A stretch of DNA of 64,000 bases, taken from the IMG/VR virus record IMGVR_UViG_3300037418_002332. One strand, written 5' to 3'. Source of the DNA: a virus. Its lineage: Duplodnaviria; Caudoviricetes. Below are positions 17,599 to 50,468 of the stretch, piece by piece. Below the pieces are notes generated by a model. It worked only from the letters and a program-made list of their open reading frames with translations, had not been told where the DNA came from and did not search any database. Position numbers and translations under genes: made by a program. Position 1 is the stretch's first letter, and every line of letters begins with the position of its first letter.

Positions 17599-18078
17599 AT
17601 GCTGAAGTTTTCTGAATTTAACAATGCTCCATTAGCCAAAAAATTCGTTGGCTTATTTGTGGATAAAGAAAGTCAAACAAAGCTTGATTTTTGGGCTCGT
17701 TCCATGAACTTTGATTTGACTAAAGATCATGATGGTCAAGATATTGGAATGTTTCCATTTCATGCCACTTTGTTCTATACTAATAACGAAGTGAGATACA
17801 TCAATATGGATTTTGTTTTTCCAAAAATTGAAGCCCAATTCAAGGGCATCGAACTATTCGGTGAAAACAATGATATTCCTGTTTTGACAGTACATAAATC
17901 AGACAAATTACTTGGATTGCGTGAATATTTTGAAGATCAAGGTTTTACTGATAGCAGACCATGGTCTCCTCATGTGACTTTGTCATATAACTGGAGCCCA
18001 ATCAATCCAATTAGCAACATGGTGTTGCCAAACTTTTCAATTTATTTCAACCGTCTTGTAATAGAGGATCAAGGATGA
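17599..18078 (+). CDS. 2H phosphoesterase, T4 57B/Acb1-like
   Basis: two HxT motifs (FHATLFY, PHVTLSY); N-terminus MLKFSEF similar to 57B. Confidence 0.75.
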   Translation: MLKFSEFNNAPLAKKFVGLFVDKESQTKLDFWARSMNFDLTKDHDGQDIGMFPFHATLFYTNNEVRYINMDFVFPKIEAQFKGIELFGENNDIPVLTVHKSDKLLGLREYFEDQGFTDSRPWSPHVTLSYNWSPINPISNMVLPNFSIYFNRLVIEDQG

Positions 18079-18785
18079 AAAACATAGCAGTAATGAAAGA
18101 CTCAAAAATGAGCGACATCTTCGATCCAGAAGATAAAGTTATCAATATCATGACACCAAATACATTTTCAGCTAGAAAATATGGGTTGCCTGAAAAAGGT
18201 GCGTTCTTGTACAAAGGTTATCCAATGTACTTGGATAGAACCGTCATTCACGCACGTAAGGAAGACAAAGCAAAGGTAGATGAATTGTTGAAAGAAGATA
18301 TTCAACTAATTGAAATTTCAAACAAGTTGCTTAACAACTATATGAAAAAATCTGGTGATGACATGGTTTCAGCTATGCATAAGCAAAAGGCTGGCCGTCC
18401 TGTGGATTGGAAAAAAGTGAATAAAAGATCAGCTGGTTATAACAAAGCCCATAGCAAAGTTAACACAGGTCGGTATTCAGATAAGAATTCGAAATCAAAG
18501 CTTGAAGTTGAATCAGTCCAACCAATCGATGAAATTTCAGTGAAGAAGCTTAGCAATTATATGAAAAAGGCTGATGATGAAATGCATTTGGCAAAAGATC
18601 AAATGAAGCATGCTGGAAGTAAAGAAGAACACGACAGCGGCAAAAAGTGGTTCAACAAACGTTCCAAAGGTTACAGCAAGGCTCACCAAAAGCTTGATGC
18701 GAAAGTCAATGCTCGTAGAACTGATGAAAATTTGTCACTATTCGCAAGGCTAAATAATCTTAGAAAGACGTTTGGAGACAAGTAA
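18075..18785 (+). CDS. repeat-containing basic protein, probable internal head protein
   Basis: two about 60-aa repeats EIS.K.L.NYMKK..D.M...NKRS.GY.KAH.K. Confidence 0.6.
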   Translation: MKNIAVMKDSKMSDIFDPEDKVINIMTPNTFSARKYGLPEKGAFLYKGYPMYLDRTVIHARKEDKAKVDELLKEDIQLIEISNKLLNNYMKKSGDDMVSAMHKQKAGRPVDWKKVNKRSAGYNKAHSKVNTGRYSDKNSKSKLEVESVQPIDEISVKKLSNYMKKADDEMHLAKDQMKHAGSKEEHDSGKKWFNKRSKGYSKAHQKLDAKVNARRTDENLSLFARLNNLRKTFGDK

Positions 18786-24957: not shown

Positions 24958-27255
24958 ATGTCCATAACAATCAAGAAGCGCAGTGGCGCCGACGAAATTC
25001 TACAAATTGACAAAATCCATAAACAACTTGAATTTGCCTGCGAAGGCATTCACAATGTTTCCGTTTCAGAAATCGAGTTGAGATCGGAACTACAGTTCTA
25101 CAACAACATGACGACTGAAGAAATTCAAGAAACGTTGATTAAGACAGCTGCGGATTTGATCACTGAAGAAACACCAAATTATCAATATGTTGCTTCACGT
25201 TTGATCAACTTCGATTTGAGGAAGAAAGTTTTCGGTGATACTGAACCAAAATCAATCTACGAAATCGTAAAAGCTGGTGTTGCAGCAGGGTTCTATGAAC
25301 CTGGATTGCTAGACTGGTACACTGAATCCGAATGGGATTCTATGAATCGTATGTTGAGACATGAACGTGACTTCAACATTGTTTACGCTGGAATGGAACA
25401 ATTCAGACGAAAGTATCTCGTCAAAAATAAAATCACCGACCAATACTATGAAACACCTCAAATGGTTTACATGTTGATCGCAGCAACAGCTTTCAATATG
25501 GAAGAAAAATCAAAAAGACTAAAGCTGATCAAGGAGTTTTATAATGCAGTTAGTAATTTCGACATTGGCTTGCCTACTGCTATTTTGGCTGGAGTTAGAA
25601 CTCCTATTCGCCAGTTCTCCAATTGTACTCTTATTGACGTGGGCGATAGTCTTGATTCCATTAATGCAGCTGCATCATCTATCGTCAAATACGCTAGCAA
25701 GAGAGCTGGTATTGGTTTCAACGTTGGTCGTCTTCGTGCTATTGGGTCTCCTATTCGTAATGGAGAAGTCACCCACACCGGTGTTCTTCCCTTCATTAAG
25801 TATCTCACTGCTGCATTAAAATCATGTAATCAAGGTGGCATTCGTAATGCTTCCGCAACATGTAATTTCCCAATGTGGCACTATGAATATGAAGACTTGG
25901 TTGTTTTGAAGAATAACAAGGGTGTTGAAGAAGCACGTAATCGTTCAATTGACTATGTCATTCAAATCAATCAAGTTCTACTACAAAGATTGATTGACGG
26001 CAAAGACATTACATTGTTCTCACCATCTGATGTTCCTGATTTGTATGAAGCATTTTTCAGATCAAATGCTGAATTTGAATATCTTTACAACAAGTATGAA
26101 AAAGATAAATCAATTCGTCATCGTAAGATTTCCGCATTGGAAGCTTTCAGCCAATTGATCCTTGAGCGTAAGGAAACAGGTCGTATCTATATTCAATTTG
26201 TTGATAATACCAATGAACATGGTGCATATGATAGTTCAAAGCAAATCATTACCATGACTAACCTTTGTGTTGAAATCACTCCAATCACCAAGCCTCTTGA
26301 TGATGTGAATGATCCAAATGGTATTGTTTCACTATGTACTTTGGCTTCATACAATTTGGGTAATGTAAAGACACCATCTGACTTTGAACGTATGTCTTCA
26401 ATCTTGGTTCGCTTCCTTGATAACATTCTAACATATCAAGATTATTTGCTTCCAGCTGCGAAACATTCAACTGATCTTTACAGAAACATTGGTATTGGCT
26501 TGACCAACTTGGCATATTTCCTTGCTAAGCATAACCAAAAATATACTGATGAATCAACTACTGAGTTTCTTGCTCCGTTCTTTGAAGCATACTCATATTA
26601 CACGATCAAAGCTTCAATGGAATTGGCTAAGGAACGCGGTGCTTGCTTGGGCATCGATGATACCAAATGGAAGCAAGGGTTGACTCCGGTTGATACATAC
26701 CGCAAAACTCTTGACGAATACACCAAAAACGATTTACTTCTTGATTGGAATCAGCTAAAAAGTGATTTGAAAGAGTTTGGTGTTCGTAATGCTAATCTCA
26801 TGGCACAAATGCCTAATGAGACCAATTCTCAGGTCATTAACTCAACCAACGGCATTGAACCACCGCGTTCACTAGTTTCCGTTAAGAGTTCCAAGGATGG
26901 TGCTCTTAAGCAGGTCGTGCCTGAAATTTCAAGATTGAAGAAGCGATATGAACTTCTTTGGGATCAAAAGTCTCCCGAAGGATATCTGAAAATCTGCGGT
27001 CTTTTGACTAAGTTCATTGATCAAAGTATTTCAACAAACACTTCTTACAATCCTGAGTTCTATGAAGACAAAATCATTCCTATGTCAGTGTTGATCAAGG
27101 ATTTAATTACTGCCTATCGTATGGGTATCAAGACCTTGTACTATCACCAAGAAAATGACATGGCTGGTGAAATTGAAATCAAAGCTGAAGTTCCAATCTT
27201 TGTTGAATCAACTGATTCGTTGGAAGATGAGTTCTGCGAAAGTTGTGCCATTTAA
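24958..27255 (+). CDS. nrdA: Ribonucleotide reductase class Ia alpha
   Basis: ATP cone, FSNC, NQGGIR, TNLCVE, NSTNGIEPPR, C-terminal CESCAI. Confidence 0.97.
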   Translation: MSITIKKRSGADEILQIDKIHKQLEFACEGIHNVSVSEIELRSELQFYNNMTTEEIQETLIKTAADLITEETPNYQYVASRLINFDLRKKVFGDTEPKSIYEIVKAGVAAGFYEPGLLDWYTESEWDSMNRMLRHERDFNIVYAGMEQFRRKYLVKNKITDQYYETPQMVYMLIAATAFNMEEKSKRLKLIKEFYNAVSNFDIGLPTAILAGVRTPIRQFSNCTLIDVGDSLDSINAAASSIVKYASKRAGIGFNVGRLRAIGSPIRNGEVTHTGVLPFIKYLTAALKSCNQGGIRNASATCNFPMWHYEYEDLVVLKNNKGVEEARNRSIDYVIQINQVLLQRLIDGKDITLFSPSDVPDLYEAFFRSNAEFEYLYNKYEKDKSIRHRKISALEAFSQLILERKETGRIYIQFVDNTNEHGAYDSSKQIITMTNLCVEITPITKPLDDVNDPNGIVSLCTLASYNLGNVKTPSDFERMSSILVRFLDNILTYQDYLLPAAKHSTDLYRNIGIGLTNLAYFLAKHNQKYTDESTTEFLAPFFEAYSYYTIKASMELAKERGACLGIDDTKWKQGLTPVDTYRKTLDEYTKNDLLLDWNQLKSDLKEFGVRNANLMAQMPNETNSQVINSTNGIEPPRSLVSVKSSKDGALKQVVPEISRLKKRYELLWDQKSPEGYLKICGLLTKFIDQSISTNTSYNPEFYEDKIIPMSVLIKDLITAYRMGIKTLYYHQENDMAGEIEIKAEVPIFVESTDSLEDEFCESCAI

Positions 27256-27623
27256 TGAACAATTTCGATAAAACCCAATTGACATTGCAAATGCTCGAAA
27301 AATTTGATCGGGCAATTGCTTTGGGTGGTAAACATGTTGCCACTGAATATTTGTATTCAGGATTGGGAACCCATAATCGTGATGGCACGTTAACTAAGGA
27401 ATATGGTGGTCAAAGAACAGATGATGATCACCCTGTTCATTCTAAAAAGGTAGAACCACCTGCTGCGAAAATTTCAAATCCAATTTTCACTGTTGAAATA
27501 GAACTTGAATTGGTTCAAGATTTGAAAGCAATAAGCCATCTAAATTGGAAAGATGAATTAGCAAAGGTTCTTGGTACTGAACTGGTGGTACAATACGAAG
27601 AATGGGAAAGAAACAATCCTTAA
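27255..27623 (+). CDS. small protein ending in a major-capsid (gp23) fragment
   Basis: LELVQDLKAISHLNWKDELAKVLGTEL resembles gp23 IELAQDLRAVHGMDADAELSGILATEI (recalled). Confidence 0.65.
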   Translation: MNNFDKTQLTLQMLEKFDRAIALGGKHVATEYLYSGLGTHNRDGTLTKEYGGQRTDDDHPVHSKKVEPPAAKISNPIFTVEIELELVQDLKAISHLNWKDELAKVLGTELVVQYEEWERNNP

Positions 27624-28441: not shown

Positions 28442-29556
28442 TGGAAATCAATGTTGACTACACCAAGAGAAAAATGTTTCTCAATGGTGACGTTTCAATC
28501 GCTCGTTATGATCAATTGAAATATCCAATGCTTGACACATTGGTCAAGCGTCAAAGAAGCTTCTTCTGGCAACCTGAAGAAATTCAAGATATTGGTCGTG
28601 ATAAATCCGACTTCAATCTTCTTCAACCTCATGAAAAGCACATTTTCGTTTCAAACCTTTTGAGACAAACGCTTTTGGATTCAATCCAAGGTCGAGCTCC
28701 TTCTGAAGTTTTCACTCCAATCACCTCAGTTCCTGAGGCTGAAATTTGGACGCAAACTTGGGCTTTCTCTGAAACAATCCATTCATATTCATACACTTAC
28801 ATTGTCAGAAATATTTTTGCCAATCCAAGTGAAGTGTTTGACAAAATGCCGTCCATTCAAGAAGTTGTAGATTGCGGTGTTGATATTTCCAAATTTTATG
28901 ATGAATTAGCAATTTACAATAAATTGGTTGATATTTATGGCTATGATGCAGATGTTGGCCATCACGAAATAACTCTCGATCCATTGAATGAGTATGAGCA
29001 TAAGAAACGTCTTTGGAAGTGTTTGATGTCAGTTAACATTCTTGAAGGCATCCGTTTCTATGTTTCATTTGCTTGCTCATGGGCTTTTGCCGAACGTAAG
29101 ACTATGGAAGGCAATGCAAAAATCATTAAGTTGATTGCGCGTGATGAAAATCTTCATCTGGCTTCAACACAATACATGCTTCGTGAATTGAAGAAAGAAG
29201 ATGCTGACTTTGCACAAATTGCAGAAGAAACTGAATCTGAATGTATTCAAATGTTCAATGAAGCTATTCGACAAGAAAAGGAATGGGCTGATTATCTGTT
29301 CAAAGATGGATCGATGATCGGGTTGAATGCAAACATTCTCAAGCAATACGTGGACTATATAGCAAAACAAAGAATGAAGGCTGTTGACCTACCTTGTGAA
29401 CTAGAAGTGAAAACCAACCCACTTCCATGGACAAATAAATGGATCGGTGGTAAGGAAGTACAAAATGCACCACAGGAAGTTAATATCACCAGTTATCAAG
29501 TTGGTGCTATTAAATCAGATCTTGATTCTGATTCCTTGAAAGGTTTCAAACTTTAA
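28441..29556 (+). CDS. nrdB: Ribonucleotide reductase class Ia beta
   Basis: FFWQPEEI, DSIQGR, ETIHSYSY, EGIRFYVSF, RDENLH, APQE. Confidence 0.97.
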   Translation: MEINVDYTKRKMFLNGDVSIARYDQLKYPMLDTLVKRQRSFFWQPEEIQDIGRDKSDFNLLQPHEKHIFVSNLLRQTLLDSIQGRAPSEVFTPITSVPEAEIWTQTWAFSETIHSYSYTYIVRNIFANPSEVFDKMPSIQEVVDCGVDISKFYDELAIYNKLVDIYGYDADVGHHEITLDPLNEYEHKKRLWKCLMSVNILEGIRFYVSFACSWAFAERKTMEGNAKIIKLIARDENLHLASTQYMLRELKKEDADFAQIAEETESECIQMFNEAIRQEKEWADYLFKDGSMIGLNANILKQYVDYIAKQRMKAVDLPCELEVKTNPLPWTNKWIGGKEVQNAPQEVNITSYQVGAIKSDLDSDSLKGFKL

Positions 29557-29783
29557 TGCCAACTGCAAATACAGTTTTAAATATCAAGCAATATTTTGAT
29601 GTAGAAAATTATGAACCAACTGTTATCTATGACAACAAAATCCATGTGGTCGGTAGATTAAAAAGAACTTACAATGATGTTGCATTTATCTATGCGCCAT
29701 ACATTCCATTGCAAATGGTTGGAGCACCAGCAAATACTGCAATAAAAACGGTTGGATTTAAAACGAGATACGGCATTGTCTGA
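29556..29783 (+). CDS. 75-aa protein carrying gp23 C-terminal block
   Basis: AFIYAPYIPLQMVGA...VGFKTRYGIV resembles gp23 AGIYYAPYVAL...MGFKTRYGI (recalled). Confidence 0.75.
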   Translation: MPTANTVLNIKQYFDVENYEPTVIYDNKIHVVGRLKRTYNDVAFIYAPYIPLQMVGAPANTAIKTVGFKTRYGIV

Positions 29784-30030
29784 GTGGCCAAAAGATACTA
29801 TCTATGATCCACAAATACATGTTATCGGACGAATTGAACAAAATCAATATGATCCAGTTTTGCTTGGCATAGTCAGAAGAACGTGGCCAACGTTGCTTGC
29901 TAATTCAATTATTGGATCGCAAAATATGATGAATCCTTCAGGACAAGTATTTTCACTGAGATCAAAATACAGTGGAGCAACTTCAAATACCCAAACAGTT
30001 ATAATAAAGGACGAAATAGATGGCGAGTGA
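29776..30030 (+). CDS. 84-aa protein carrying gp23 Gol-region block
   Basis: PVLLGIVRRTWPTLLANSIIGSQNMMNPSGQVFSLRSKY resembles PAVMGMVRRAIPNLIAFDICGVQPMNSPTGQVFALRAVY (recalled). Confidence 0.75.
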   Translation: MSEWPKDTIYDPQIHVIGRIEQNQYDPVLLGIVRRTWPTLLANSIIGSQNMMNPSGQVFSLRSKYSGATSNTQTVIIKDEIDGE

Positions 30031-41301: not shown

Positions 41302-41858
41302 GTTACGGAAATGTAACCGTTTTCGCTGGACCAATGTTCTGCGGAAAAACATCACATTTGCTACAACAATACATCTGGAAAAATCACGCCAAAGATTACT
41401 CGCTTCTAATCAAACCTGCTTTTGATGATCGTTATTCAATGACGGAAGTCGTTACGCATCTTGGATTGAAAGCAACTGCTGCAAATATTACAGATGCGGC
41501 AAGGATCATGGATTATTTCCAAAACGATCAATATCGAAACTTGATGATCGATGAATGTCAATTTTTCACTGCACCGCACGTTCGCGGTGACATTTTTCCA
41601 TATCTGAAACTGCTTCTCAATCGCGGTGTCAATATATACGCATCGGGACTTGATATGGATTGGATGGGCGAACCATTCGAAGTTACGGCAAAGCTTTTGG
41701 CTATGGCAGATAACGTCCATAAGCTCAAATCAGTTTGTAATTATTCAGGCAAAGAAGCCTCAAAGACATATAAAAAGAGCTTATCTGGTGGATCAGTGGA
41801 ACTTGGTGAAACTGATAAATATGAAGCCAGAAATAACGAATTTTGGAGATACGAATGA
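41298..41858 (+). CDS. tk: Thymidine kinase
   Basis: GPMFCGKT, IDECQFF, GLDMDW.GEPF, KYEA. Confidence 0.93.
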   Translation: MSYGNVTVFAGPMFCGKTSHLLQQYIWKNHAKDYSLLIKPAFDDRYSMTEVVTHLGLKATAANITDAARIMDYFQNDQYRNLMIDECQFFTAPHVRGDIFPYLKLLLNRGVNIYASGLDMDWMGEPFEVTAKLLAMADNVHKLKSVCNYSGKEASKTYKKSLSGGSVELGETDKYEARNNEFWRYE

Positions 41859-42193
41859 CCAACTTTACAAAAGAAGAAACATTGGGTGCTATCAAATGGT
41901 TTCTTCTTGATTTGACAAGAGAACAATTTGCTGAATTCAATGATAAGGAAACAAGATCAAAATTCGTTGAAGTGACAAATGAGTTTTTGGAACGTATGAA
42001 GTTTCATGAAATGATTGAAAACTATATTGTTATTTGCGATGAAACAAATAACACAGAACCTCAAATTGATGCAAATGAATTTAGATCATCGACTTATTTG
42101 AAATTTTCAAACGATCCGGAATTTACATGTTTGAATACTGTGTATGCAAGAACTGGAATTGAATTGGAGCATATAAAGGGGATGATGCCTTGA
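41855..42193 (+). CDS. stand-alone tail-sheath (gp18) C-terminal domain
   Basis: EFNDKETRSKF...YIVICDETNNTEPQIDANEF...LNTVYARTG resembles gp18 C-terminus (recalled). Confidence 0.8.
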   Translation: MTNFTKEETLGAIKWFLLDLTREQFAEFNDKETRSKFVEVTNEFLERMKFHEMIENYIVICDETNNTEPQIDANEFRSSTYLKFSNDPEFTCLNTVYARTGIELEHIKGMMP

Positions 42194-42522
42194 CATATGG
42201 ACAAGCTCTTGCCATAGACGTAAAATTACATTTATCTTTGGAATGGAATAAGCTATTCTTAGCTGAAAATTCCTCAGTAAATAGGGCGATTGTAACCTCA
42301 ACAGCCTGTTCCGTCCTTGATGGAATGGTGATGACTGATGACATTTATGATTTCAAGGTTGTTTGTGATCAAACGAACAATCTGCCTGGCGAAGATAAAA
42401 TCATTGTTGATGTTTATGTGAAACCGAAAAAAGTTGTGCAGTTTGTACATATGTCATGTGTCCTACCTGCTGATGATGGGTATATAATGGGAAGAAAAGT
42501 ATGCAGCAAGAGAGACTTGTAG
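42190..42522 (+). CDS. second stand-alone tail-sheath C-terminal domain
   Basis: IYDFKVVCDQTNN...VDVYVKPKKVVQFV. Confidence 0.75.
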   Translation: MTYGQALAIDVKLHLSLEWNKLFLAENSSVNRAIVTSTACSVLDGMVMTDDIYDFKVVCDQTNNLPGEDKIIVDVYVKPKKVVQFVHMSCVLPADDGYIMGRKVCSKRDL

Positions 42523-45554: not shown

Positions 45555-46015
45555 GCAAATTTCATCAAACATTTAAAGATTTGTGTTTTGATGATTCAGA
45601 TCGATTCAAAAGATTCATGGACCATTGGTGGTGGTTGGAACAATCAGATTACCATGACTATCAACCAGTTAGTGATATGGTTTTCTTTGGAAGCGTATTT
45701 TTCGAATGGCTAAGAATCACAGGAAACAAACCGACTGTTTGGTGGGGCAATCACCTACTAAATCAGACTGATTATTTGAAAAGTTTTGTGATGGGATTTG
45801 AGACAAGAGAGCTATCTTGGTGTGAGGACGGCGTCAAAATGCTTGACACTTTCAATACTGGTGAATTAAAAGAATTGATGGAAAATGAACACGGATTCAC
45901 TTTCAACTCACAAAATAAAATGAGTGAGCAACATTTTATAATATATGATGGACAAGAAGTTTTGCCTGATTGGTTAATACAACAAGTTAACATAGGAATA
46001 ATAGAAACCATATGA
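45551..46015 (+). CDS. paralogous family member 5 (divergent)
   Basis: KDLCF...FFGSVFFEW. Confidence 0.5.
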   Translation: MSKFHQTFKDLCFDDSDRFKRFMDHWWWLEQSDYHDYQPVSDMVFFGSVFFEWLRITGNKPTVWWGNHLLNQTDYLKSFVMGFETRELSWCEDGVKMLDTFNTGELKELMENEHGFTFNSQNKMSEQHFIIYDGQEVLPDWLIQQVNIGIIETI

Positions 46016-46755
46016 TCGTTTACGCCGCAGCTGATACCAACTATTTTATGGAACATGGCCTTGAGTTTATCAACTCATGTGTAGCCAATGAGAATTTTTG
46101 TCACATAACTGTGTTCCTAAATTTTATGGAAGACGTAGATGATCAAGTTCGAAAAGTCCAAGCATTCATGACCGCGAATGAATCAAAGCTTCATCCTAAT
46201 GCGAAGAAATATTTGATTCCGCCGGAATTTTTCACTCAAATGTACAAATGTCAAATTGATGATAATCGTGCATACTATGCTTCTTTCAGATTCATGCATT
46301 TGCCTTATGTGATGAGTCAGTTTCCAACTGAAGATATTTTGGTTTTGGATATTGATTCTGTTGTGAAGAAAAAACTTCCTGATATCAAAGCTGATATGGG
46401 TGTGTATTTACGTTTGGACAATATTGCTGGGGCAAATTTGTATGAACAAATGGGCATGTTGGTGGCTGCTGGAATATTGTATATTCCGTGGCATAAAAGA
46501 GAGTTGGCTGAAATTTTGAAAGCTGAACTTCTTAATCAACCAATCCGTTGGTTCTGCGATCAGCATGCAATTTTGAAAGTGTATCGTGCATTAACCCAAG
46601 AAACTCAACCACCTGTGATCTATGATTTTGCAGTAACTGAATGGTTGGATTGGGAATTTGTCGAAGATTCCTACATTTGGACCGGCAAGGGCGATCGCAA
46701 ACATAGTGAAAAATATTTGAACGAGAAATCAAAGCACAATGGCATCAGTGGGTGA
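46012..46755 (+). CDS. nucleotide-diphospho-sugar transferase-like protein
   Basis: AYYASFRF, LVLDIDS DxD motif, WFCDQ. Confidence 0.7.
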   Translation: MIVYAAADTNYFMEHGLEFINSCVANENFCHITVFLNFMEDVDDQVRKVQAFMTANESKLHPNAKKYLIPPEFFTQMYKCQIDDNRAYYASFRFMHLPYVMSQFPTEDILVLDIDSVVKKKLPDIKADMGVYLRLDNIAGANLYEQMGMLVAAGILYIPWHKRELAEILKAELLNQPIRWFCDQHAILKVYRALTQETQPPVIYDFAVTEWLDWEFVEDSYIWTGKGDRKHSEKYLNEKSKHNGISG

Positions 46756-47239
46756 TCTATACGATCTTCAAATCATCAAAGATGAAATTTCATTTGACGA
46801 TACACTTGATCAAACAAATTTCAATAATTTTCTTAATGCTGCTTGGTATGGTAAGAAATCCAAATGGCATCTTGGTGGCGATGTTGTTTATGCTCGAGAC
46901 TTTCTTTGCGGAGCAATGTATCAATATTACATTTTGATGCATGAACATCCTGAATGGTTTGATGAAAAAATCAATGTTTTGATAAGATTTAGCACTGATG
47001 ATGCTTCTGATATAGTTGTAAATCAGATATGTGAATTCATAGGGAGCGTTCGACCTGTTCCTCAAGAACTTATCGAAAAACATGGTCCACGTATCATTCA
47101 CTATCATTCCCACATCCCCCATGATGCAGATGTAATTGATATGGCTTTGTATATTCAACCTGAAGGATCTAAACGAGTATTTAAACGTGCTGAATATGTT
47201 TCGCGTATTGATATGACAATGGAGTATTTCAGTCCATGA
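46739..47239 (+). CDS. paralogous family member 6
   Basis: DEISF...DFLCGAMYQY. Confidence 0.55.
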   Translation: MASVGDLYDLQIIKDEISFDDTLDQTNFNNFLNAAWYGKKSKWHLGGDVVYARDFLCGAMYQYYILMHEHPEWFDEKINVLIRFSTDDASDIVVNQICEFIGSVRPVPQELIEKHGPRIIHYHSHIPHDADVIDMALYIQPEGSKRVFKRAEYVSRIDMTMEYFSP

Positions 47240-47697
47240 CAAATGATGAAATTTGGGAAATTTTAAGCAGTATTGATTTTGAAGATTGTAAATCGTCGTA
47301 TAAATCTCATTATTTCGATTTATTTAGAACTATGACACATTGGGAAAATCGTGAAATAGTTACAAGAATGAGTCAAGATGAATGTCATGAATGGCTTGCA
47401 CGATCAATGTATCAATATTCATTATTTCTTGGTGAAATTAATCCACAACTTTATCGTAAAATTCTGTTCGTATTTCGCGAATATATTACAACGAAATCTT
47501 TCACCATAACTCTCGAAGAATTTTTCAAGTTGCGCGGATTTCCAGATGATAGTGGAAGTCACTTGTTGATATATGATGAATATGATGACAACAATCATTA
47601 CGATGTAGTGATTAACGTCATGAGTCGTACAGCCAATTTTATTCCCGAAAACTTCAAAAATGCAAAATGCATCATCGCGGTGATTCACAATGATTGA
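47236..47697 (+). CDS. paralogous family member 7
   Basis: SIDF...WLARSMYQY. Confidence 0.55.
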   Translation: MTNDEIWEILSSIDFEDCKSSYKSHYFDLFRTMTHWENREIVTRMSQDECHEWLARSMYQYSLFLGEINPQLYRKILFVFREYITTKSFTITLEEFFKLRGFPDDSGSHLLIYDEYDDNNHYDVVINVMSRTANFIPENFKNAKCIIAVIHND

Positions 47698-48169
47698 AAT
47701 GAAAGAAGAAATTAAGTGGATTATGTTTCCTGACCATGACACAAGTTCAAAATTTTTTCAATTTTCAGAATTGATGACTGGTGTCAGGCGTAACATTTCA
47801 CCTTGTAATTTGTACTTTGAATCATTGTTTGATTTGAAAGATTTTCTCGCAAGATCGTTGTATCAAATCCATTTGCTGCTTGCCGAACACAAAATAGATT
47901 CTCGACAAATAAAGATTGAGGGTGTTGATTTCGAAAACGACACAATTTCTCAACTTATAAATTTAGTAGATGATTTTATTCTTGGTAAAAACCAAGTACC
48001 GTTCAGCGAGTGTCGCATTAAATTGTGGCACAAAAATGGGATTGGGACATTGTACCAAAATGTCAAGTTTACCGATCACATTATCATAGTTCGAGAAGAA
48101 ACAGCTTTGAATGAAATACCGTTCCCTGATGCTGAACATTTCTATCATTGCATATTGCCTAAAAGATGA
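47690..48169 (+). CDS. paralogous family member 8
   Basis: WIMF...DFLARSLYQI. Confidence 0.55.
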   Translation: MIEMKEEIKWIMFPDHDTSSKFFQFSELMTGVRRNISPCNLYFESLFDLKDFLARSLYQIHLLLAEHKIDSRQIKIEGVDFENDTISQLINLVDDFILGKNQVPFSECRIKLWHKNGIGTLYQNVKFTDHIIIVREETALNEIPFPDAEHFYHCILPKR

Positions 48170-48178
48170 AGGAGACAT

Positions 48179-48802
48179 ATGACCGCCGCATTTACTGAGA
48201 TTCAGACTGCGACTGGTGAATTTTTTGATTATGCGCATTTTTCTGAAACCGATATCCATGAAGAAGATATCGCCCATGCTTTGAGTATGATTTGCAGATT
48301 CAATGGACACTGCTTGAAATTTTACTCAGTAGCAAAGCACCTTTGTTTGGTGCATGATTTGATGGAGTACGATCGTGTCGAAATGAAAAAACCATTGACA
48401 CGTGAAGATGTTTTCCACGGACTAATTCATGATGTTGGTGAAGCATATCTCACCGATATTCCAAGACCATTGAAGAATTACTTTACACAAAGCACTGAAT
48501 TCACTGCTTTCATGGATGACTACATCGATATTGAAAATAGAATCATTGAAGGCTTTGCGCGCAAATATCCATATGGTAAACATGCGCCTCATGCGGCAAC
48601 TGTGAAATACTATGACACATGGGCTTTGTTGCTTGAACAAAAATATCTGATGACCAAAACAAAGAAGGAATGGTCAATAAGTATTGCTGATTATCCTGAT
48701 GAACCTCATTTCGTTAAAGGCATGATGAATCCATTTTTGTATGAAAAAGATTGGGCACGTGAGTTCATGAATAGATTGGAATATTACAATGAAGTTGCTT
48801 GA
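48179..48802 (+). CDS. HD-domain 5'-deoxynucleotidase (YfbR-like)
   Basis: EDIAHALSMICRFNGH, YSVAKH, LIHDVGEAYLTDIPRPLK. Confidence 0.88.
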   Translation: MTAAFTEIQTATGEFFDYAHFSETDIHEEDIAHALSMICRFNGHCLKFYSVAKHLCLVHDLMEYDRVEMKKPLTREDVFHGLIHDVGEAYLTDIPRPLKNYFTQSTEFTAFMDDYIDIENRIIEGFARKYPYGKHAPHAATVKYYDTWALLLEQKYLMTKTKKEWSISIADYPDEPHFVKGMMNPFLYEKDWAREFMNRLEYYNEVA

Positions 48803-49502
48803 CAAAGTCAAGAAATTTTTCAAGAACACTTTTCCTGAGGTCAAAATCGATCCTGAAGTTCAATCAATGGTTGATTTGGGATTGATTTCACCAACACAAG
48901 CCTCGAATGTAACGCAGGTTCCGTTTCAAATTCAAAAGATTCAAGTGACTGCTAAATCAAGAACAATGGTTGCTCAATGGAACCATGAACCTGATTTATC
49001 TGATGAATGGTATTCTGAACGATACAATTTAGATTTTAGCGAATGTCCACAATGGAACAAAGAAATTTATGCAACTGTCTACGATCACTTCGCTGATACA
49101 CAAACTTCCATGTATCCTGTAACATTGACTCGTGAGCTTCCACGTGGATCAGGCAAATCAACCTTTTTCAGAAAGTTGATTGAGAATCTCTACGAAGCCA
49201 TGAGAAATGATCCGAAGTTGATGGTGAATAAAGTTGTTTACATTGGAGCAAATACGACTCAATGCAGAGAATTTTGCAAGTATTTTCTGCAAACCCAAAC
49301 TAACAACTTTCATCAAACAGGATTTTTGGTTTGGACTGCAAATTTGGCTCAAGCTTTGGATAATTCAAAGCTTTATCCGGCTGGCAAAAACATTCTCTAT
49401 ATTTTGGATGATGCTCTCGATGATCCAAATAGCTTCACCACTCAATCAATTAAAGACCGTCATGATAAAGTTATGATAGTCAAACTTTACACACCAAGAT
49501 AA
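48789..49502 (+). CDS. chimera: gp23 fragment plus terminase-like P-loop remnant
   Basis: PFQIQKIQVTAKSRTMVAQW; ELPRGSGKST; YILDD. Confidence 0.55.
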   Translation: MKLLDKVKKFFKNTFPEVKIDPEVQSMVDLGLISPTQASNVTQVPFQIQKIQVTAKSRTMVAQWNHEPDLSDEWYSERYNLDFSECPQWNKEIYATVYDHFADTQTSMYPVTLTRELPRGSGKSTFFRKLIENLYEAMRNDPKLMVNKVVYIGANTTQCREFCKYFLQTQTNNFHQTGFLVWTANLAQALDNSKLYPAGKNILYILDDALDDPNSFTTQSIKDRHDKVMIVKLYTPR

Positions 49503-49511
49503 GGAATAGGA

Positions 49512-50468
49512 ATGCACGTAACAATCGTTGAACCAAGACTTGATTTGTCATTCAAAGATCCTGGTCCGGGATTTGTTGTTCCTGACAAAATTGGCGAATT
49601 CACCCATCCAATCAGAGAACATTGGCATAAGTTCACTTTGAAATTGGCTGCAGTCCATACAGCCATGGATGATAAAGTTGTTGTTAATACAATTCCTGGT
49701 TGGGAAATAACAATGGCTGCTATGTCAGTTTTGTCTGCAACGACTGACATATTGTATTTGCCCCATCGTCAAAGATTTGAATTTCCAATTCCTAATGCAA
49801 GATTTTATATGCAAACTGTGTTTCCTGAATATTTCACTATCGATGATAATGGTTGGGGAGCATATCTTTCTTATTTGCCAATCAATGTTGATGATGTTCA
49901 ACCAAATGAAGTTTTGTGGCAAAAGCTTCAAAAGCGCATCACAAACAATGAATCCAAATTTGACCAACCAAACTCAAGTATATTATTCAAGCATAATTTG
50001 AACTCAATGGCAGGAAACTTTTTACTGTTTGTTTGCCAAATTCCACACGATCAAGTCATCATTCAAAGCTCAGCGGTTTCAGTCGCAACAGCATTGAGAG
50101 AAACTATCAATTATGCCAGATATAACGGTTACAAAGTGGTCGTAAAAGGTCATCCAGTTAATCCTGGCGCTATGAGTGAATTGAAAGCAATCACTTTTGA
50201 TAACAAGGATATAGCCACATGGGTTGATACAGGATTATCAATTCATACTCTTCTTAGTCACTGTAAAGCAGCATTCATGGTCAATTCCGGTGTAGGATTT
50301 GAAGCCATGCTTCATGGTAAACCTATCGTTACTTTTGGCAATTCTGAATATAAAGAATATGTCAATCAATGGTCAGGCTTTAGCACTCCGCTAAATATGG
50401 ACTACGATAAGTACAAAAGATTCATGACGGCATTCTTCAATAAGCTGTTCTACACCGGAGAGACTTAA
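49512..50468 (+). CDS. capsular polysaccharide export/biosynthesis (KpsS/KpsC-like) GT-B protein
   Basis: CQIPHD, VVKGHP, SIHTLL, VNSGVGFEAMLHGKPIVTFG. Confidence 0.75.
   Translation: MHVTIVEPRLDLSFKDPGPGFVVPDKIGEFTHPIREHWHKFTLKLAAVHTAMDDKVVVNTIPGWEITMAAMSVLSATTDILYLPHRQRFEFPIPNARFYMQTVFPEYFTIDDNGWGAYLSYLPINVDDVQPNEVLWQKLQKRITNNESKFDQPNSSILFKHNLNSMAGNFLLFVCQIPHDQVIIQSSAVSVATALRETINYARYNGYKVVVKGHPVNPGAMSELKAITFDNKDIATWVDTGLSIHTLLSHCKAAFMVNSGVGFEAMLHGKPIVTFGNSEYKEYVNQWSGFSTPLNMDYDKYKRFMTAFFNKLFYTGET

Follow-up and report, generated by a model that had tools for sequence, protein, structure and literature searches.

In the window (the whole 64,000-nucleotide stretch analyzed here, IMG/VR record IMGVR_UViG_3300037418_002332), a T4-like phage carries an intact open reading frame (ORF), at 48789-49502 on the plus strand, coding for a 237-residue protein, in which a short block, very probably related to the major capsid protein gp23, is followed by a P-loop half. 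The best explanation is a real, lineage-restricted accessory gene, whose product would be a two-part protein, capsid strand plus P-loop, acting by binding: a probability of about 0.55 is assigned to this reading. The first ~85 residues would carry a copy-like version of a single P-domain strand, corresponding to T4 gp23 250-273, and the remaining ~150 are predicted to form a minimal P-loop nucleotide-binding domain. The Walker A and B motifs, their spacing and the truncation just past the strand following Walker B resemble those of T4 vs.8 and other stand-alone proteins of the terminase-ATPase type. At least four small genes, this one included, are located in the replication and nucleotide-metabolism region, and each keeps one gp23 block.

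The features recognized in the ORF are:

48789..49502, plus strand: whole ORF, 237 residues (P0001), from direct reading and gene call.
48897..48989, plus strand: Gp23-like block, residues 37-67, found by Pfam, PHROGs, hidden Markov model (HMM), hhalign and BLASTP.
49044..49499, plus strand: P-loop nucleoside triphosphatase (NTPase)-like domain, residues ~86-237, with a beta-alpha-beta arrangement predicted at low confidence.
49134..49163, plus strand: Walker A, ELPRGSGKST, residues 116-125, with an Arg inside the P-loop in the style of TerL (the terminase large subunit) and vs.8, from direct reading.
49389..49412, plus strand: Walker B strand, NILYILDD, from direct reading; it aligns with ILYIIDE of vs.8.
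49467..49499, plus strand: last predicted strand, KVMIVKLYTPR, at the protein end, in the position of the TerL C-motif strand (MIVISTP in the TerL of the same phage), assigned by eye.

The ORF and its two motif peptides are found as given in a preliminary description of this DNA, ELPRGSGKST lying exactly at 49134-49163, while YILDD corresponds to residues 204-208 (49398-49412).

The capsid-like block and its sister genes

The resemblance to gp23 had been placed at 48918-48989. This is essentially right: these positions cover residues 44-67, the peptide PFQIQKIQVTAKSRTMVAQW itself corresponding to residues 45-64 (48921-48980). The whole block, residues 37-67, aligns with positions 127-157 of the 376 of the Pfam Gp23 profile, with residues 195-219 of the phage's own gp23 and with residues 250-273 of T4 gp23, which form a P-domain beta-strand leading into a short acidic helix. 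The pattern F-x-I-x-K-x-x-V-x-A-K-S-R is shared with gp23; of the longer FxIxKxxVxAKSRxLKAxY block, residues 44-64 retain F, I, K, V, A, K, S, R and A, with W replacing Y. Residues 44-67 match the gp23 of T4, KVP40, cyanophage S-T4, HTVC008M and of the phage itself at 9-11 out of 24 positions. The cyanophage consensus (VTAKSR) resembles the block more than does the gp23 of this phage (VTAEAR). Only about 30 of the 376 profile positions are present in the protein: the rest of the HK97 fold is missing.

When residues 1-112 are compared with Pfam, Gp23 is the sole family matched (PF07068; E 0.0051, 16.7 bits); in PHROGs, the sole match is the T4-type major head protein (E 0.003). Overall, the Gp23 matches are sub-threshold (E 0.003-0.016, 15-17 bits): the full-length protein scores 15.1 bits against PF07068, below the gathering cut-off of 24.4 bits, and does not qualify as a member of the Gp23 family. 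Comparison of the protein with a gp23 alignment by hhalign gives a probability of 61% (E 7.9e-5). A home-built gp23 HMM, made from seven T4-type gp23/gp24 sequences, scores 15.3 bits (p = 3.6e-7), and the best of 400,000 shuffles of the protein reaches 14.9 bits; the tail of the shuffled scores is about 2-3 times heavier than assumed by HMMER, which brings the corrected p to about 1e-6. As a control, 1,220 natural six-frame ORFs were scored: all remain at or below 3.9 bits, except the true gp23/gp24 genes and four ORFs of the window. Of the 683 window ORFs, four match the model, at 46.7, 24.6, 16.0 and 15.3 bits, the next one reaching 2.5 bits.

BLASTP against the phage's own gp23 finds 9 identities over 25 residues (E 6e-4); with a match of this extent, and no DNA similarity, a recent copy of that gene is rejected. 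Identity of the block with the Gol peptide is also rejected, since the block corresponds to T4 250-273 and Gol is located within the first quarter of gp23 (PMC3014915).

Three other small ORFs of the window carry different Gp23 blocks, two of them above the Pfam cut-off:

27243..27623, plus strand: 126 residues, gp23 block T4 272-301 (Pfam Gp23 E 0.016, positions 153-183).
29556..29783, plus strand: 75 residues, gp23 C-terminal P-domain block T4 445-479 (30.3 bits against Pfam Gp23, passing the cut-off).
29752..30030, plus strand: 92 residues, gp23 N-terminal "Gol" block T4 90-131 (45.6 bits against Pfam Gp23, passing the cut-off).

Like ORF 48789-49502, these sisters are small, intact ORFs, lying in a non-structural region and featuring one conserved gp23 block each; unlike it, they are 75-126 residues long and have no second domain, fusion to a P-loop being found in ORF 48789-49502 only. 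The four blocks are non-redundant, each being a different piece of gp23, and no sequence similarity is found among the capsid-block genes outside of them. ORF 27243-27623 sits between nrdA and nrdB; its gp23 match is at the C-terminus, and takes in the acidic helix and the first part of the spine helix. Its block (T4 272-301) abuts, within gp23, the one of ORF 48789-49502 (T4 250-273); both proteins have the same sub-threshold Pfam Gp23 E value, 0.016, and the block of ORF 48789-49502 is statistically equal to the weakest of its sisters. ORF 29556-29783 begins at the nrdB stop and overlaps, in another frame, the start of ORF 29752-30030; the block of the latter is 50% identical to T4 gp23, and its matches in cultured phages are full-length capsid genes only. 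Because the sister ORFs carry other gp23 blocks, the block of the 237-residue protein is considered very probably a genuine gp23-related segment.

[quoted passage not shown] According to our mapping, the four blocks would fall in the N-arm and at the periphery of the P-domain, none of them in the A or insertion domains; this bias may partly reflect the fact that these are the best conserved, and most detectable, parts of gp23.

Pieces of other virion proteins are also kept by the phage. Two tandem mini-genes, at 41843-42193 and 42190-42522 on the plus strand, code for the C-terminal domain of the tail sheath only (PF17482, 8.7e-7 and 0.033, respectively), and match residues 551-635 of the phage's own gp18 at 5e-17 and 2e-7 when compared by phmmer.

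The P-loop half and its possible relation to terminases and vs.8

To judge from its motifs, the C-terminal half appears to be an NTPase core of terminase or vs.8 style. The RxxGK[ST] pattern of the TerL Walker A is found as PRGSGKST at residues 118-125 (KFPRQSGKST in the phage's own TerL), and 83 residues separate it from the Walker B, ILYILDD. With the N-terminal ATPase of gp17 (PF03237, PHROG 2) the protein has in common the order, and roughly the spacing, of Walker A, an hhhhAN strand, Walker B and a final hhhh-x-TP strand; unlike gp17, it is without the catalytic Glu, the nuclease domain and the lid subdomain. Placement of KVMIVKLYTPR at the C-motif is a positional comparison made by eye, which carries no statistical support. 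As the preliminary description had noticed, no nuclease domain follows: an RNase H-like domain (PF17289) is absent, the protein stops at residue 237 and a Capsule_synth/KpsS-like gene begins 9 nucleotides on. The location is also different from that of a TerL gene, ORF 48789-49502 being far from the packaging module.

In PHROGs, the top match of the P-loop half is TerL (phrog_2; E 0.0015-0.003, 17-18 bits). The best local alignments are obtained with Kyanoviridae-type TerL (z 3.4-3.8); nine other P-loop proteins, the coliphage-type TerLs and the TerL of the phage itself do not exceed z 2.1. Feature neighbours in the ESM Atlas are mostly N-terminal ATPase fragments of TerL (0.87-0.88), to be taken at the level of a lead only, and the Atlas model (predicted template modelling score 0.63) resembles RecA-like helicase domain 1. 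PF03237, the large terminase ATPase family (Terminase_6N), gives no match at E up to 5. The terminase-like ATPase originally proposed is therefore upheld in part: the Walker motifs stand by direct reading, while the assignment to TerL, as measured by the phrog_2 match and by hhalign (12% probability), is weak. Chances that the P-loop half descends from a terminase are put, from these comparisons, at roughly one in three.

Two specific origins were considered and rejected. BLASTP against the phage's own TerL gives E 0.24, with the similarity confined to the Walker A, PRxSGKST: a recent copy is rejected, since only this motif matches and there is no DNA similarity. A PhoH-like ATPase was considered because HTVC008M has a PhoH gene beside its GH108 endolysin gene; it is rejected, as no Pfam PhoH match is found and the local alignment with the HTVC008M PhoH gives z = -0.13. 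A different outcome, in which the P-loop belonged to a non-terminase family and the N-terminal block had no gp23 hit, was not encountered: the block does match gp23, and for the P-loop no other family is convincing.

The closest analogue of the protein is T4 vs.8 (NP_049732, 219 residues, PHROG 1488), a stand-alone terminase-ATPase-like protein. Relatedness of the vs.8 family to TerL has been reported (PMC13601566) and is confirmed here by a match of vs.8 to phrog_2 at 1.7e-5 and by a 90% hhalign probability between the vs.8 family and TerL. Both proteins are small T4-type accessory proteins, of about 200-240 residues, where an N-terminal extension precedes a P-loop core, spanning Walker A to Walker B, and no nuclease is present. 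They share an R-x-S-G-K-S Walker A and an ILYI(I/L)D Walker B (GGRQSGKS and ILYIIDE in vs.8), separated by ~80 residues, and both end shortly past the strand after Walker B; the local motifs TL..R.SGKS, V.h..NT and ILYIhD[ED]....P[DN] are common to the two. The conserved Arg-Gly loop of vs.8 is not found in the 237-residue protein, which has DD instead of DE; its gp23-like block, in turn, is absent from vs.8.

Such likeness leads to an alternative explanation, where the protein is a highly diverged terminase-ATPase paralogue of the vs.8 type, and the capsid-like block is incidental, or convergent, within its N-terminal extension. Architecture and size are the same (219 and 237 residues, with an N-terminal extension and then a core which begins at Walker A and ends one strand after Walker B), local motifs are shared and both genes lie in accessory-gene regions. 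The explanation is nevertheless unlikely: PHROG 1488 does not match the protein even with E as high as 5, the vs.8 HMM does not pick it out among the window ORFs, hhalign stops at 21%, and the three sister genes with gp23 blocks would be left unexplained.

Genomic setting and distribution

ORF 48789-49502 is co-directional with tightly packed neighbours. Its start overlaps by 14 nucleotides the stop codon of the upstream gene, coding for an HD-domain deoxyribonucleoside 5'-monophosphate phosphatase (phrog_318, 1e-42); 9 nucleotides separate its end from the start of the Capsule_synth/KpsS-like gene, which is followed by a GH108 plus M15 endolysin gene. Its GC content, 0.368, indicates a native composition, when compared to the 0.389 of the window. 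The gene call is identical on 7 contigs, and the DNA of the ORF is 100% identical across the 4 copies compared. Scans for promoters, terminators and T4 late promoters gave no signal above chance.

The protein is an orphan. No relative was found by tblastn in 50,697 phage records, nor by an IMG/VR search; in a search of 5.8-billion protein clusters its sole match is itself. HMMER, run exhaustively on 1.84 billion representatives, returned the protein itself and one plant PPR protein, the latter judged spurious because of internal repeats. Solved-structure sequences, PADLOC and NCBIfam contain no useful match.

The locus may be compared with that of 11 distant viral contigs (L037-L047), which carry a 36%-identical KpsS-like gene and no equivalent of ORF 48789-49502. 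In these contigs the KpsS-like gene comes directly after a DxD transferase gene; in the window, a 2.7-kb stretch lies between the DxD transferase gene (46012-46755) and the KpsS-like gene (49512-50468), and contains three paralogous small genes (46739-48169), the HD phosphatase gene and ORF 48789-49502. The 46012-50468 region looks like an insertion hotspot within a glycan-gene cluster. Use of the HD phosphatase gene as a query found no related loci.

Restriction of the orphan to one clonal phage population, and its location in a 2.7-kb stretch which splits two glycosyltransferase genes adjacent in distant relatives, are compatible with a non-functional by-product, that is, a chimeric ORF left open by chance after illegitimate recombination in a hyperplastic region. 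This origin is distinctly unlikely, as the 237-codon frame is intact at 37% GC, has a native composition and is coupled to both neighbours; both Walker motifs are preserved, the sister mini-genes are intact, and no DNA similarity to gp23 or TerL marks recent debris. The term "remnant", used in the preliminary description, finds no support: the flanks of the ORF are not decayed, and at the DNA level it resembles neither the gp23 nor the TerL gene of the phage.

The phage is T4-like, ~250 kb in size, and comes from soil: a protein-to-protein walk led to a 250,291-bp circularly permuted JGI soil-metagenome contig. T4-type genes found in the window include gp43, gp41, gp46/47, NrdA/B, topoisomerase II subunits and DNA ligase; the polymerase is 43% identical to cyanophage polymerases. 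The DNA of the window is present in 7 soil or rhizosphere DNA runs, with zero differences among the contigs compared, and no RNA run is listed among the sequencing runs containing it. The phage's own gp23 (L008:226-1578, P0123) and TerL (L018:2145-3755, P0124) genes are located near the sheath, tube, portal, prohead protease and scaffold genes.

Some additional observations concern the rest of the genome. Immediately upstream of the large terminase gene, and divergent from it, a gene of the Gad2 (anti-Gabija) family is found (L018:1355-2095, minus strand). Within the head module, L018:11910-19760 codes for a giant protein of 2,616 residues, which has a faint BNR_6 match; the portal gene is on one side of it, the prohead protease gene on the other. 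A 236-residue ORF of the replication region (18075-18785, plus strand) is similar to a 272-residue head-module protein, whose gene (L012:4360-5178) comes just before that of the prohead protease (phmmer E 2.8e-6): the similarity involves two segments, found in swapped order. Finally, the clamp-loader region of the JGI contig contains an extra gene, coding for 224 residues (L008:14635-15309, minus strand), missing from the otherwise collinear Logan contigs L009 and L010. This gene, which may be an inserted mobile endonuclease, is a sign of variation at the strain level.

Interpretation and significance

A number of results weigh against the proposed accessory protein, composed of a capsid strand and a P-loop. 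The Gp23 match is short (about 28 residues) and falls under every curated threshold, and language-model and structure searches, performed with residues 1-112 alone, show no capsid signal. In the P-loop half, the hhhhDE form of Walker B is not found, ILYILDD having an Asp in place of the catalytic Glu (VILDE in the phage's own TerL), and the Arg-Gly loop of TerL and vs.8 is shortened, with an Ala at the Arg position, as judged by eye. Pfam matches of this half are limited to generic AAA families (E 0.03-0.1), and home-built T4-type TerL HMMs, covering the whole ATPase, the post-Walker A region or the N-terminus, give no significant score (1.6 bits or less). Probabilities from hhalign are low: 12% against TerL (E 0.0025) and 21% against the vs.8 family (E 0.001), in the latter case over residues 112-214, Walker A through Walker B. 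The vs.8 HMM, run on the 683 window ORFs, gives the protein no positive score. Single-sequence AlphaFold2 models have a predicted local distance difference test (pLDDT) score of 34.7 for the full-length protein and 49.8 for residues 84-237, a low confidence due to the absence of homologues; Foldseek, run on the latter model, found nothing at E <= 0.001, a pLDDT of 49.8 being too low for this to have meaning. Neither homologues, in the databases searched, nor sequence variants of the ORF, in the contigs from the 7 runs, were found through which conservation or selection could be seen.

As for the way in which the proposed two-part protein would work, its action would be exerted through binding, and not through DNA packaging. 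The capsid strand may be displayed, possibly under control of a bound nucleotide, to a partner which normally meets unassembled gp23; it may be a host sensor, or a factor involved in folding or assembly. The protein would act with its sister mini-genes, or alongside them.

Among host sensors, those of the Avs type detect TerL and the major capsid protein (PMC13581612, PMC13601566), and for EcAvs2 the ATPase domain of TerL is all that is needed (PMC13601566). The preliminary description had suggested a dual decoy. In such a role, the capsid-like strand and an ATP-loaded, terminase-like surface would soak up sensors without activating them, the targets being Avs2/3-type sensors for TerL and Avs7-, Lit- or CapRel-type ones for the capsid, and the other capsid and sheath mini-genes would work alongside. 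The phage does have a whole set of mini-genes with conserved blocks of virion proteins, and a Gad2-like anti-defence gene. Two published results are contrary to the decoy. T4 vs.8, the one stand-alone TerL-ATPase-like protein tested, is toxic together with EcAvs2, which means that it activates the sensor instead of blocking it (PMC13601566); because of this, a terminase-like mini-protein is more likely to be a trigger of the sensor than a decoy. Of vs.8 and the 237-residue protein, only the former is known to activate EcAvs2 and to be related to TerL. Moreover, at least 12 of the 14 Avs families examined envelop the whole core of their target (PMC13581612), which a 30-residue block cannot imitate. 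For the 237-residue protein a decoy role is unsupported, and is given little probability.

Equally little is granted to a wider reading, that of a multi-gene kit for "core-proteome mimicry", in which the protein would be the member switched by a nucleotide. The kit would include capsid P-domain and N-arm blocks, the sheath handshake domain and a terminase-ATPase-like core, all expressed early in infection. Host sensors, or EF-Tu, chaperonin and similar host factors, which recognize unassembled virion proteins would be occupied by these blocks. The single polypeptide of ORF 48789-49502 would present both the capsid strand and a terminase-like face with ATP bound.

The literature searched contained no account of decoy genes made of capsid fragments. 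STAND/Avs sensors are now known to watch most core virion proteins, TerL and the major capsid protein among them. Intact mini-genes, each keeping a single block of the capsid or of the sheath, are candidates for managing the exposure of conserved patterns, or for regulating capsid folding and assembly; in one of them, the capsid block is fused to a predicted nucleotide-binding domain with terminase-style motifs. Should the block have a function, the protein would be a compact reagent to find which partner recognizes the capsid strand; should it have none, the gene would be an example of how orphan genes are built from pieces of core genes in the hyperplastic regions of phage genomes.

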